From Solimonas sp. (lineage in GTDB: Bacteria > Pseudomonadota > Gammaproteobacteria > Nevskiales > Nevskiaceae), in the NCBI GenBank assembly GCA_035476855.1, contig DATILC010000168.1:4644-68643 (forward strand): DNA of 64,000 bases, in the 5' to 3' direction. Positions 397 through 53,430 of this stretch are shown piece by piece. Below the pieces are notes generated by a model. That model was given only the letters and a program-made list of their open reading frames with translations. It was not told where the DNA came from and did not search any database. Both the position numbers and the translations under genes were made by a program. Positions within the stretch are counted from its first letter, which is position 1. Every line of letters begins with the position of its first letter.

Positions 397-516
397 GCGG
401 TGACGCCATCCATGGCGGGACTTCTGCTCGCCCATCTACCCCCGGCCCGCGTTGGGCTTACCTCGGAGCGACATCGAGTCGCTCCTCGCCAGGGCCCAAC
501 GCTCCATGGCCGGGCG
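397..516. repeat. 120-bp structured repeat, copy A
   Basis: Ungapped 91/120 match to 53271-53390; nested stems 441-447/508-514, 449-457/494-502, 465-472/478-485; CCATGGC at 410 and 504. Confidence 0.85.
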
Positions 517-557
517 CGAGCCCCCGCAGGCAATGCCGTTTAGGCGTTGCGGCTGCA

Positions 558-634
558 GTGACGCCATCCATGGCCGGGCGCGTCCAGCCGCAAGCAATGC
601 CATTTAGGCATTGCTTAAGCGCGGCTGGACGCCC
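558..634. repeat. Core-deleted tandem copy of the structured repeat plus a bulged hairpin overlapping the recQ 3' end
   Basis: 558-582 equals 400-416 joined to 511-518; stems 580-591/621-632 (12 bp) and 592-601/607-616 (10 bp). Confidence 0.8.
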
Positions 635-2474
635 ACTCGCGGATCAGGGCCGTGAAGTCCCAGCCGTATTCCTCCAGCTTGCGTGCGCCCACCCCGGGGA
701 TCGCGGCGAAAGCGTCCTGGTCCACCGGCTTGTCGCGGGCCATCGCGCGCAAGCTGGCATCGTTGAACACCACGTAGGGCGGAACGCCGTGATCGGTGGC
801 GATCTTCTTGCGCAGGGCGCGCAGCTCCTCGAACAGCGCATCCTCGGCGGCATCCCCGCCGGAGGGCGCAGCGGCCGTCGACGTGCGCTTCGCCTTGCCC
901 TTGGGCGCCAGCACCGGCGCGGCCATCTGCACGGAGCGCTCGCCGCGCAGCACTTCCCAGCTGGCCGGGTTGAGGGTCAGTACCGGGTAGCCGTCGTGGG
1001 TTTCCTCGACCAGGCCCTGGTGCAGCAGCGAACGGGCCAGGATGCGCCACTCCTCCATCGACCGCCCCGCCCCGATGCCGTGGATGCTGAGGCTGTCATG
1101 GCCGTTGCCCAGCACCTTCTCGGTCTTCGCCCCGCGCAGCAGCTCGATCACGTAGGCCGCGCCGAAGCGCTGGCGCCGCTGCGCCAGCCGCGCCACCGCC
1201 GACAGGAACTGCTTGGCCTCCAGCGTCCAGTCCTGCAGCGGCCGCGGGTTGAGGCAGTTGTCGCAGCTGCCGCAGCGCCCGGGGAACTGCTCGCCGAAGT
1301 AGCGCAGCTGCACCGCGCGGCGGCATTCGCTGCTCTCGGCATAGTCCAGCACCTGGCGCAGCTGCTGGCGCGCGATGCGCTGCTCGTCCTCCAACGGCTC
1401 GCCGCTGCCGGGATGGACCTTCTGCGCGATCAGGAACTCGGCGGTGCGGATATCACCGATGCCGAAGTAGAGGATGCAGCTGGCCGGTTCGCCATCGCGG
1501 CCGGCGCGGCCGGCTTCCTGGTAATAGCCTTCCATGGACCGGGGCAGATCGTAGTGCACCACCCAGCGCACGTCCGGCTTGTTGATGCCCATGCCGAAGG
1601 CGACGGTCGCGACCATCACCTGCGCGTCGTCGCGGATGAAGCGCTCCTGGTGCTCGCGCCGCGTGTCGCCATTGAGGCCGGCGTGATAGGGCAAGGCGGA
1701 GACGCCGGCGGACTGCAGCTCGGCGCTCAGCTCGTCGACGCGCTTGCGCGACAGGCAGTAGACGATGCCGGAGCCGCGGCTGCCGCGGGCATGGGTCAGC
1801 AGTTCGTCGAAGCTGCGCGCGTTGCGCGGCCGCACCGCGTAGTACAGGTTCGGGCGGTTGAAACTGGCGACGTGCAGCGCCGGCTCGCGCAACGCCAGCT
1901 GCCGCATGATGTCCTCGCGCACGCGCGTGGTCGCGGTGGCGGTGAAGGCGAAGACCGGCACATCCGGGAAGGCCTCGCGCAGCCGGCTCAGTTGGCGATA
2001 CTCGGGGCGGAAGTCATGGCCCCATTCGGAGACGCAATGGGCCTCGTCAATGGTGAAGCCCGACAGCCCGACGCTGTCGCGCAGCGGCTGCAGGAAGCTT
2101 TCGACGAATCCGTTCGACAGCAGCCGCTCCGGCGCCACGTATAGCAGCCGGGTTTCGCCACGGCGCAGGGCCTGGATGCGTTGCGCCGCCTCGGCGCCGC
2201 TGAGCGTGGAGTTGAGGAAGGTCGCAGCGATACCCATGTCCGCCAGCAGCCGTACCTGGTCCTGCATCAGCGCGATCAGCGGCGACACCACCACCATCAC
2301 GCCGGGGCGCAGCAGCGCCGGCAACTGGAAGCACAGCGACTTGCCGCCGCCGGTCGGCATGATCGCCAGCAGGTCGCGGCCGGCCAGCGCATCGCGCACC
2401 ACGGCTTCCTGGCCGGGGCGGAAACGGTCGAAGCCGAAATGGCGCTTCAGCGCCAGCTGCAGGTCATCGGACAT
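615..2474 (-). CDS. recQ: ATP-dependent DNA helicase RecQ
   Basis: MPTGGGKS Walker A, DEAH box followed by CVSEWGHDFRPEY, VATVAFGMGINK, YYQEAGRAGRDG, Cys-rich RQC region, C-terminal HRDC-like segment. Confidence 0.97.
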   Translation of the reverse strand: MSDDLQLALKRHFGFDRFRPGQEAVVRDALAGRDLLAIMPTGGGKSLCFQLPALLRPGVMVVVSPLIALMQDQVRLLADMGIAATFLNSTLSGAEAAQRIQALRRGETRLLYVAPERLLSNGFVESFLQPLRDSVGLSGFTIDEAHCVSEWGHDFRPEYRQLSRLREAFPDVPVFAFTATATTRVREDIMRQLALREPALHVASFNRPNLYYAVRPRNARSFDELLTHARGSRGSGIVYCLSRKRVDELSAELQSAGVSALPYHAGLNGDTRREHQERFIRDDAQVMVATVAFGMGINKPDVRWVVHYDLPRSMEGYYQEAGRAGRDGEPASCILYFGIGDIRTAEFLIAQKVHPGSGEPLEDEQRIARQQLRQVLDYAESSECRRAVQLRYFGEQFPGRCGSCDNCLNPRPLQDWTLEAKQFLSAVARLAQRRQRFGAAYVIELLRGAKTEKVLGNGHDSLSIHGIGAGRSMEEWRILARSLLHQGLVEETHDGYPVLTLNPASWEVLRGERSVQMAAPVLAPKGKAKRTSTAAAPSGGDAAEDALFEELRALRKKIATDHGVPPYVVFNDASLRAMARDKPVDQDAFAAIPGVGARKLEEYGWDFTALIREWASSRA

Positions 2475-52363: not shown

Positions 52364-53234
52364 AGGCCCCGATGACTTCGACGCACTGTTCCGGGCCGCC
52401 GGAGTCGATGGCTGGCTGCATGCGCTGGACCTGAGCAGCGGCCGCGAGATCGACCATGGCGCCGATCAGCCGGTGGTGGCCGCCTCGGTGTTCAAGATCC
52501 CGGTGCTGGTCGAACTGTGCCGGCAGGCCGACGCTGGGCAGATCGATCTCGCCGAAGCTGTCCATGTCCCTGCCGAAGACCGCGCCGCGGGCTCCACCGG
52601 CCTGTCGATGGGCCTGGATGCCGCTACGCACAGCTGGCGCGACCTGGCCCTGTCGATGATCGTGGTCAGCGACAACGCCACCACCGATGTCTTGTGCGCA
52701 CGGCTGGGCCTCGACCGCATCAACGCGGCGATGGCTGCGCTAGGCCTGCCGGGGACGCAGCTCGAAGGTGATTGCCGGTACCTGTTCGCACAGATGGCCG
52801 CAGATGCCGGCTGTACGGGCCTGGCCGACTTCCCGCCGAAACCTGATCCGGAACTGCTGGGCCGCCTGCGCGTACTTCAACCCTTGCTCACCAACCGCAC
52901 GACGCCACGCGAAGCCACGCGCCTGCTGGTCGCGATCTGGCGCGACCAGGCCGCCTCGACGGAGAGCTGCGCGTTGATGCGCCGCATCCTCGGCGCGCAG
53001 GTCTGGCCGCATCGCCTCGCGTCCGGCTTCCCCGAGGACGAGATTCGCACGGCCGGCAAGACCGGCACCCTGATCATCGTGCGCAACGAGGCGGGTGTCG
53101 TCAGCTACCCCGACGGCAGCCACTACGCCGTATCGGTCTTCACCCGCAGCCACGAAGTACGCGCGAAGCACCCCGCGCAGGACCGCGCGATCGGCCAGGC
53201 AGCGCGCCTCGCCGTGGACCTGCTGCGGGGCTGA
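52356..53234 (+). CDS. Class A beta-lactamase-fold serine hydrolase lacking Glu166
   Basis: SVFK, SDN and KTG motifs; omega-loop segment TQLEGDCRYLF in place of TRLDRWEPELN. Confidence 0.8.
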   Translation: MPEGPDDFDALFRAAGVDGWLHALDLSSGREIDHGADQPVVAASVFKIPVLVELCRQADAGQIDLAEAVHVPAEDRAAGSTGLSMGLDAATHSWRDLALSMIVVSDNATTDVLCARLGLDRINAAMAALGLPGTQLEGDCRYLFAQMAADAGCTGLADFPPKPDPELLGRLRVLQPLLTNRTTPREATRLLVAIWRDQAASTESCALMRRILGAQVWPHRLASGFPEDEIRTAGKTGTLIIVRNEAGVVSYPDGSHYAVSVFTRSHEVRAKHPAQDRAIGQAARLAVDLLRG

Positions 53235-53270
53235 TCGGCCAGGCCCATCAACAGGCCCTTGCATGTTGCT

Positions 53271-53430
53271 GTGGTGATGCCATCCATGGCGAGACGGCCG
53301 TTCGCCCATTGAACCCCGGCCCATGCTTGGCTTACTTCGGCATGACATTGAGTCATGCCTCAGCCGGGCCAAGCATTCCATGGCCGGGCGTTCGGGCGCC
53401 TCGCGGCCCTTGGCCGCGAAGCAGGCGCCC
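53271..53430. repeat. Structured repeat, copy B, plus trailing bulged hairpin
   Basis: 53271-53390 aligns ungapped to 397-516; trailing stems 53394-53400/53424-53430 and 53401-53408/53412-53419. Confidence 0.85.

Follow-up and report, generated by a model that had tools for sequence, protein, structure and literature searches.

The window analysed here is a stretch of 64,000 nucleotides of a Solimonas sp. contig (DATILC010000168.1), and it contains four units of a modular, structured repeat family that is apparently large and undescribed. Two of these units, A and B, share a 120-bp repeat (397-516 and 53271-53390) that a sequence-only reading had reported as an element of its own, with three nested stems kept by paired base changes. 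The two copies aligned without gaps with 91 of 120 positions identical, as that reading had stated, and each folded into the same long hairpin (-62 and -57 kcal/mol; fold z about -4 for both, with 0 of 200 shuffles equally stable). The outer stem CCCGGCC/GGCCGGG (441-447/508-514 and 53315-53321/53382-53388) was invariant between the copies, the middle stem (449-457/494-502 versus 53323-53331/53368-53376) carried four double changes and the inner stem (465-472/478-485 versus 53339-53346/53352-53359) three, which makes seven compensatory pairs in total and no broken pair. The observation of two copies with paired changes is real, and A and B are a rare subtype of the larger family: the 120-bp repeat makes up two-thirds of a longer modular unit, on its 5' side, and what had been taken for three stems of one element is a canonical hairpin of the unit (P2) with an optional hairpin inserted in it. 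We give about even credence to the view that the family is a non-autonomous mobile or duplicative mosaic repeat, of the kind of the repetitive extragenic palindromes (REPs) and bacterial interspersed mosaic elements (BIMEs), with the fold of one strand as its recognition structure.

Architecture of the Unit and the Four Units of the Window

Plus and minus refer to the strands of the window, and R stands for its minus strand. In 66 aligned units the order of the modules on the plus strand was P1, spacer, P2, CGTTCG, P3, and CTCACC, with a length of about 115 nt for the canonical unit and 165 nt for the type of copies A and B. P1 is a mini-hairpin, CGCCATCCATGGCG, which among the loci takes the form (C/T)GCCATCCATGGCG and is followed by N-GAC; the spacer of about 23 nt between P1 and P2 is unconstrained and near maximal entropy; P2 is CCCGGCC-ATCCAT-GGCCGGG, that is, the invariant outer stem of the two 120-bp copies; and P3 is a bulged hairpin of free sequence, with a 3'-side bulge that is usually AAGC. 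The dyad box GCCATCCATGGC is present twice per unit, and this motif occurs exactly four times in the window (405, 563, 20345, and 53279), against about one expected from a dinucleotide-shuffle control. Besides the form P1-spacer-P2-P3, units were found in which P1 and P2 are fused, in which P2 carries an insert, in which the 3' arm of P3 is missing inside arrays, and which are nested, inserted in the CCATGG of other units. A covariance model built from 57 canonical units (R1) recovered the four units of the window, whose strand was assigned by mismatch asymmetry:

397-557, minus strand: unit A, which is the inner one in a direct array of two units; R1 match at 401-491 (37.5 bits); P1 box 404-417, spacer 418-440, P2 stem 441-447/508-514, inserted 53-nt hairpin 449-502, P3-like hairpin 526-556.
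558-640, minus strand: short unit; R1 match at 559-635 (29.8 bits); at 558-580 the P1 box runs straight into the 3' half of P2 (GTGACGCCATCCATGG followed by CCGGGCG); bulged P3 hairpin at 580-632, with AAGC bulge.
20341-20420, minus strand: partial unit, in which P1 box and spacer are present, P2 is degenerate, and P3 is missing; R1 28.2 bits; located between a tRNA (20202-20275) with its terminator and the SLT transglycosylase gene at 20422-21792 (minus strand; Pfam), on the side of the gene's 3' end.
53273-53437, minus strand: unit B, complete; R1 match at 53275-53437 (59.8 bits, E 4.5e-11); P1 53278-53291, P2 stem 53315-53321/53382-53388, inserted hairpin 53323-53376, then CGTTCG, bulged P3 53394-53430 (AAGC bulge), and CTCACCC ending at 53437; the neighbours are PF13354 and PF00144 beta-lactamase-family genes (Pfam), both on the plus strand, and the unit is antisense to both.

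The bulged hairpins at 580-632 and 53394-53430, which had been described as following the copies without any similarity between them, do exist, and they are not unrelated: both have the AAGC bulge and both are the P3 module of the family. In the same way, the short copy noticed next to copy A is present, but as a P1 box joined to half of P2, and the 120 bp given to copy B were too short, since the unit continues to the CTCACCC that ends it. The partial unit was first seen in a repeat search, as a partial copy at 20343-20389. The array at 397-640 stands behind the RecQ gene (minus strand), whose last codons lie inside P3, with the stop codon TAA at 615-617. Three long open reading frames (ORFs) cross units (109-543 on the plus strand, and 249-533 and 52740-53381 on the minus strand), and in this GC-rich genome gene finders would be likely to call them, spuriously, as hypothetical proteins.

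The hairpin inserted in units A and B was also found outside the window. Locus L195, which has the canonical P2 loop, and locus L122, in which a 53-nt hairpin replaces GCCA, have identical flanks, and the structure with the paired changes is therefore polymorphic within P2, as an indel. Both forms, with and without the inner hairpin, were also present among the contigs of the soil metagenome from which the window comes, the joint from 449 to 503 reading GCCA. In A, B, and L122 together, the 24 pairs were all paired and eight of them showed double changes, with 0 of 500 shuffles as good; the arms of the three hairpins are perfect, without any G.U pair. The inner part of the insert in B (CTTCG-stem-ATTGA-stem-CTCAGCC) resembles a miniature P3.

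Covariation and Distribution of the Family

The claim that structure rather than sequence is being kept holds for the whole family. Among 105 distinct units, 93% of the cells were paired and 17 of 23 pairs showed double changes; neither any of 500 shuffles nor any slid register came close to this. P2 itself covaries (GC/CG/UA and CG/AU), and the head GU covaries with the AC of CTCAC (UA 77, CG 14). Mutual information was seen in P2 and in the outer and inner helices of P3 only. Two further proposals about the fold were rejected. A pseudoknot between a GCTT in the spacer and the AAGC bulge gave no mutual-information signal, and the bulge stays AAGC where the spacer has GCTC. A reading of GGGTGAG plus hairpin as tRNA-like or as similar to a selenocysteine insertion sequence (SECIS) was discarded as well: the true tRNAs next to the units were all that ARAGORN gave, and the frame downstream is unconserved.

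Further copies were abundant in environmental DNA. On the contigs of the source soil metagenome there was an approximately fivefold pile-up over 398-620, with 16-19 contigs on the repeat, and a scan of metagenomes with the first module gave at least 120 loci on environmental contigs. Apart from the four units of the window, R1 recovered 117 and 30 more units in the loci, and R1 units are also present in Solimonas fluminis, in a Fontimonas sp., and in Xanthomonas sacchari R1, where they form an array of three to four units. A scan of genome contigs with GTGAYGCCATCCATGGC gave 118 loci, nearly all of them chance matches, of which seven hold real or candidate units. The organism of the window is itself Solimonas-like, its RecQ being 84% identical to that of Solimonas sp. 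K1W22B-7 and 91% to that of the JGI contig L242. The family was absent from 2.9 million viral contigs and nearly absent from plasmids, with one X. sacchari record as the sole carrier. The sequence-only reading had been unable to name a family. At gathering thresholds, Rfam 15 placed two tRNAs in the window and no family on the units; at E<=1, the units of six loci matched only Twister-sister, at 24 bits (gathering score 34); and local Rfam scans of the units returned only hairpin noise of 13-19 bits. Literature searches on the sequence of the box, on REPs of Xanthomonas, and on mosaic elements or repeats between genes turned up no description of the family.

The Strand That Folds

Which strand forms the structure was examined by folding 92 units with G.U forbidden and counting only isolated mismatches between Watson-Crick pairs. 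On the plus strand, A.C mismatches outnumbered G.U (23 versus 6, p = 0.002), C.U/U.C outnumbered A.G (26 versus 4), and C.C outnumbered G.G (10 versus 3). Viewed on the minus strand, these mismatches are G.U, G.A, and G.G, which are tolerated, and the internal loop TC/TC, which is conserved, reads as a tandem G.A/A.G. Since the mismatches are benign on the minus strand only, the structure would be selected on one strand, R. The mismatch spectrum indicates that the folded strand is probably the minus strand of the window, as RNA or as single-stranded DNA (ssDNA), opposite to the strand that the sequence-only reading had folded; a site for a protein on duplex DNA does not fit. The count on the model-fitted alignment showed the opposite trend (G.U 118 versus A.C 38), and it was discounted because the model rewards G.U and because 55 of the counts came from one doubtful closing pair.

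Gene Context of the Units

Most units (83 of 91) were intergenic, lying outside coding-like ORFs. Of the genes adjoining the GTGAG end of a unit (on R), 41 had the orientation of the unit and 20 the opposite one. C occupied the two positions behind CTCAC in 89% and 78% of the units, so that on the R strand the unit follows GG, with a precise joint at its GTGAG end; this GG junction is often the last Gly codon of a gene, and the unit's own TGA then serves as the stop. Accordingly, in 15-18 units the stop codon of the upstream gene was the TGA of GG/GTGAG, one example being an NCBI-annotated ABC permease of X. sacchari. Gene ends of the pstB-like type (...GRFG and stop) and of the ThiS-like type (...GGG and stop) recurred next to units. 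Arrays were all direct and on one strand (in the window and in L121, L130, L142, L152, L163, and L239). With respect to GC skew and the replication strand, no link of orientation was detected (38:37). Locus L132 carries at 3620-4200 a gene for a REP-associated tyrosine transposase (RAYT), at the 3' end of which stands a classical REP with a GTAG head, and at 1246-1332 an inverted doublet resembling a REPIN (REP doublet forming a hairpin); neither of them is related to the family.

Turnover at Orthologous Sites and Events at the Flanks

Orthologous sites without a unit were found for the RecQ site and the B site of the window. The 3' end of recQ is empty in L242, with its 91% identical RecQ, and in L241. 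In L242 the RecQ homology runs to ...GAGTGGG (window position 632, at which the unit starts) and is followed by native codons and a spacer of 51 nt; in place of this native sequence the window has the array plus about 200 nt. L242 carries units of the family elsewhere. The site of unit B is empty in Solimonas K1W22B-7, L244, and L245: in the window the native flank ...ACTGGG is directly followed by the unit's (G)TGAG, and the sequence on the P1 side has been replaced. In K1W22B-7 no unit was found within 35 kb. These empty sites in relatives indicated that the family is gained and lost at the scale of species within a genus. In the otherwise empty orthologue of the B site in L244 (5857-6000), GGATCCATCCACGGCC resembles the dyad box and may be a decayed remnant or a footprint.

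The end of the unit on the P1 side is ragged, with variable AT-rich tails of 0-44 nt and occasional duplication or replacement of the flank. In about one tenth of the units, the sequence just 5' of GTGAG (on R) was repeated 0-70 nt beyond P1. Junction-anchored repeats of at least 8 nt were present in 7 of 84 units, against 0.5 expected, and the lengths of the duplications ranged between 16 and about 97 nt. What is repeated is the 5' end of the gene downstream, in two copies that sometimes differ by synonymous changes; in four loci the duplicated flank begins exactly at the mature tRNA end. Plain tandem duplications of unit plus flank account for L170, L228, and L168, and other cases are single units with no simple origin. 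Slippage between CTCACC and a look-alike in the flank, such as the tRNA D-arm sequence GCTCTACC, could be the source of several duplications. The combination of a precise end with a ragged one, with tails and with duplicated or replaced flanks, might also be expected from target-primed reverse transcription or from one-ended rolling-circle transposition.

Several of these loci had particular arrangements. In tRNA clusters (L132:730-1000, L150, L151, L154:2290-2470, and L170:7950-8300) the unit is preceded, on R, by a copy of nucleotides 1-19 of the following tRNA (His, Thr, or Lys), from the mature 5' end onward, and in L168 the copy comprises the final 16 nt of a tRNA, ending with CCA. Other units lie within the first 12-15 codons of genes, the start of which is duplicated beyond the unit (L217, L161, L228, L122/L195, and L185; RNase G-like MSEEILINVTPQ, HAD-like, and others). 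The reading frame of the upstream fragment in L217 and L161 crosses the unit and ends at the intact copy's start codon or immediately behind it (ATGA overlap), a geometry of translational coupling.

Possible Nature of the Family

A mobile or duplicative repeat of the REP/BIME kind is the reading that we favour, at about even credence as said above. The sequence-only reading had proposed a substrate of single-stranded DNA recombination or transposition, REP-like or attC-like; its REP-like half gives the best fit to how the family behaves, that is, to empty and filled orthologous sites, arrays, and nesting, and its attC-like half falls. In such a mosaic repeat, the minus strand would form a recognition structure out of the conserved hairpins, the bulge, and the internal loop with tandem G.A, and a trans-acting enzyme with its gene elsewhere in the genome would read this structure. 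Paired changes would be kept because only copies that fold propagate or stay. A unit behind a co-oriented gene would also be transcribed as 3' untranslated region (UTR), and it may then act in a REP-like manner on mRNA ends.

Several results weigh against a mobile repeat. Firstly, the neighbours of the units in 120 loci included no recurring protein family, and no transposase, RAYT, recombinase, or reverse transcriptase was linked to them; the linked RAYT or recombinase that the sequence-only reading had suggested looking for was therefore missing near the units. Secondly, scanning the window and about 120 loci for motifs revealed a single RAYT, that of L132, flanked by GTAG REPs unrelated to the family. 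Thirdly, the orientation bias toward the upstream gene, which comes without a link to GC skew, fits a role as RNA at least as well as replication-coupled transposition of ssDNA. Fourthly, the same gene end carries different P3 types in different lineages, and this could equally mean long-term selection of each copy for a host function. Finally, P3 stems within one genome are unrelated, unlike the near-identical copies of classical REPs or MITEs (miniature transposable elements with inverted repeats).

A somewhat unlikely but serious alternative, which is compatible with mobility, is that the units are host-functional structured RNAs made from the minus strand, mostly as 3' UTR right behind a stop codon, in which P1-P3 would bind a conserved protein or would protect or process the mRNA 3' end, the copies being kept by selection at each locus. 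This would agree with the many compensatory changes together with conserved unpaired bases, with an internal loop that is tandem G.A/A.G on the minus strand and mismatches that are G.U or G.A on that strand only, with the excess of co-oriented upstream genes (41:20) and the 15-18 units that start at a stop codon, and with the pstB-like and ThiS-like gene ends, which carry units with different stems across lineages. However, one third of the units run antisense to the gene that adjoins their GTGAG end, and unit B is antisense to both neighbours; orthologous sites are without a unit in relatives with 86-91% protein identity; arrays, nesting, and duplicated flanks belong to events at the DNA level; and there is no terminator or evident promoter. 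Among RNA runs, none contained the window or L167, and those matched to L163 were effectively DNA, only conserved 30-mers being matched.

Going further than the mosaic repeat, and unlikely as we judge it, would be a new class of small structured mobile elements in Gammaproteobacteria, moved via a single-stranded intermediate by an enzyme as yet not linked to them; the intermediate would be either RNA copied by a reverse transcriptase, in the manner of a short interspersed nuclear element (SINE), or ssDNA cut by an unrecognised HUH-type nuclease. Such an element would home to GG at gene termini, donate a stop codon, and be able to carry the 5' end of a neighbouring gene or tRNA. The RNA route taken by itself, as a bacterial SINE-like retroposon, we consider improbable. 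Here, a reverse transcriptase with its gene elsewhere would copy the transcript of a unit, with priming on a nicked target that ends in GG, leaving one precise and one ragged junction. The units do have one precise end with GG/CC microhomology, and another end with AT-rich tails, duplications, or replaced flank; they have no inverted terminal repeats and no linked transposase, and the duplicated flanks of four loci start exactly at a mature tRNA end. Against this, the junction-anchored duplications of at least 8 nt are limited to 7 of 84 units, no reverse transcriptase was found near any unit, and tandem slippage between CTCACC and similar sequence in the flank, such as GCTCTACC, could explain several of the duplications. 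To our knowledge, no SINE-like RNA-mediated element is known in bacteria.

Another, slightly more doubtful, explanation is that the paired changes are a by-product of DNA repair, in which template switching in a quasi-palindrome copies one arm onto the other; the repeat would then be neutral and its fold would have no function in recognition. The perfect arms of A, B, and L122, which lack G.U pairs, and the hairpin that is an indel at one orthologous site would be in agreement with it. It leaves unexplained the conservation of asymmetric features (AAGC bulge and TC/TC loop) across about 105 units, the strand-biased mismatch spectrum, and the fixed module order and spacer length. Lastly, it is extremely unlikely that the units are attC-like integron sites, recombined on the folded strand by an integron integrase at cassette ends: there is a variable bulged hairpin right behind stop codons, co-oriented with many genes, and GTTCGGC resembles the core GTTRRRY, but the defining features of attC fail, as a complementary RYYYAAC is lacking, the pairing partner of GTTCG is CTCAC, across the conserved TC/TC mismatch loop, P1 and P2 have no attC counterpart, and the units are scattered over genomes behind housekeeping genes (recQ, pstB-like genes, and tRNAs), not in cassette arrays, with no integrase nearby.

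If the family is indeed a mobile mosaic repeat, a large and apparently undescribed family would be shaping gene ends in Nevskiales, Xanthomonas, and many uncultured bacteria of soil, sludge, and freshwater. It would rewrite C-termini (that of RecQ in the window), supply stop codons, and duplicate the 5' ends of genes and tRNAs. Its arrays would confuse gene callers and assemblers, and ORFs that run across units (e.g., 109-543) would be better treated as spurious. With strict structure and free sequence, the covariance model would be the handle for finding the partner enzyme by phylogenetic profiling.

Other Features of the Window

Apart from the family, the window contains several other repeated features. 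A 266-bp intergenic element at 47069-47334 has terminal inverted repeats of 32 nt that are 94% complementary (AGGGCCTGTTAACGCTATGAACG...) and a second, inner inverted repeat (47105-47138/47161-47194); it may be MITE-like or a long structured RNA. At 14163-14333 there is a tandem repeat with a period of 9 nt and about 19 copies of 60-70% identity, which probably encodes a peptide repeat of three residues. PF00144 serine-hydrolase (beta-lactamase family) genes are present as three paralogues, at 33151-34148, 50657-52363, and 53507-55165, one of them inverted, and a block of about 2.5 kb is duplicated (36996-39551 versus 55533-58037), the copies being 18.5 kb apart and 71-84% identical. At the position orthologous to this region of PF00144 genes and duplicated block, Solimonas has a TonB-dependent receptor.

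Comparison with Known Systems

Membership of the family in REPs, MITEs, attC sites, or any Rfam family is not established. REPs and BIMEs of Enterobacteria, Pseudomonas, Xanthomonas, and Stenotrophomonas are mobilised by RAYT (PMC2817692). The units resemble them in being extragenic, GC-rich, imperfect interrupted palindromes, non-autonomous, and often located just behind stop codons, in having a short conserved head by the hairpin (GTGAG on the minus strand, versus GT(A/G)G in REPs), and in their mosaic combination with other short motifs and clustering in arrays. P3, an interrupted palindrome of 45-55 nt preceded on the minus strand by GTGAG, compares with palindromes of 20-40 nt behind an unpaired GT(A/G)G head in REPs. 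The units differ from REPs in several respects. The head is GTGAG, not GTAG or GTGG, and is partly paired (G1 and U2 covary with the AC of CGAAC). The units have 115 nt and three hairpins in fixed order; their arrays are direct, without alternating orientation or the inverted doublets of REPINs; and their stems differ completely between copies of one genome. No RAYT with cognate flanks was found, that of L132 having ordinary GTAG REPs. Of REPs, hundreds of near-identical copies per genome would be expected; for the family, the counts cover four units in 64 kb and the 16-19 metagenome contigs on the repeat, and the copies of the window differ fully in P3.

Palindrome-associated elements derived from IS200/IS605, of the single-strand 'peel and paste' type, share with the family the lack of terminal inverted repeats, the general lack of target duplication, subterminal hairpins, a fixed flank (GG here), and a strand-specific structure. 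Unlike them, the units have no TnpA or TnpB nearby and no link to GC skew (38:37), their P1-side end is ragged, and about 10% of them have long flank duplications. The likeness to attC sites lies in a bulged hairpin conserved in structure and free in sequence that follows stop codons and would work as a single strand in folded form; the units have two extra hairpins and are without the complementary R''/R' cores, the cassette context, and the integrase. A MITE was rejected: the unit ends GCCATCC... and ...CTCACC are not inverted repeats, and duplications are rare (7 of 84) and of no fixed length (16 to about 97 nt).

The neisserial intergenic mosaic elements (NIMEs) and dRS3 of Neisseria and the Rhizobium-specific intergenic mosaic elements (RIMEs) of Rhizobia are intergenic mosaics in which a short dyad box lies between variable segments. 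A dyad box is also present in the family, and recombination from box to box would give fused forms such as that at 558-580. A sequence relation with these elements is not apparent, and the variable segment of the family (P3) is a structured hairpin with a conserved bulge and loop. Differently from these elements, no link to a phage or to an IS110-type integrase was seen, with 0 matches in the 2.9 million viral contigs. As in mosaic intergenic repeats of the BIME/NIME/RIME kind, the units consist of short modules that are variably combined, intergenic, and clustered.

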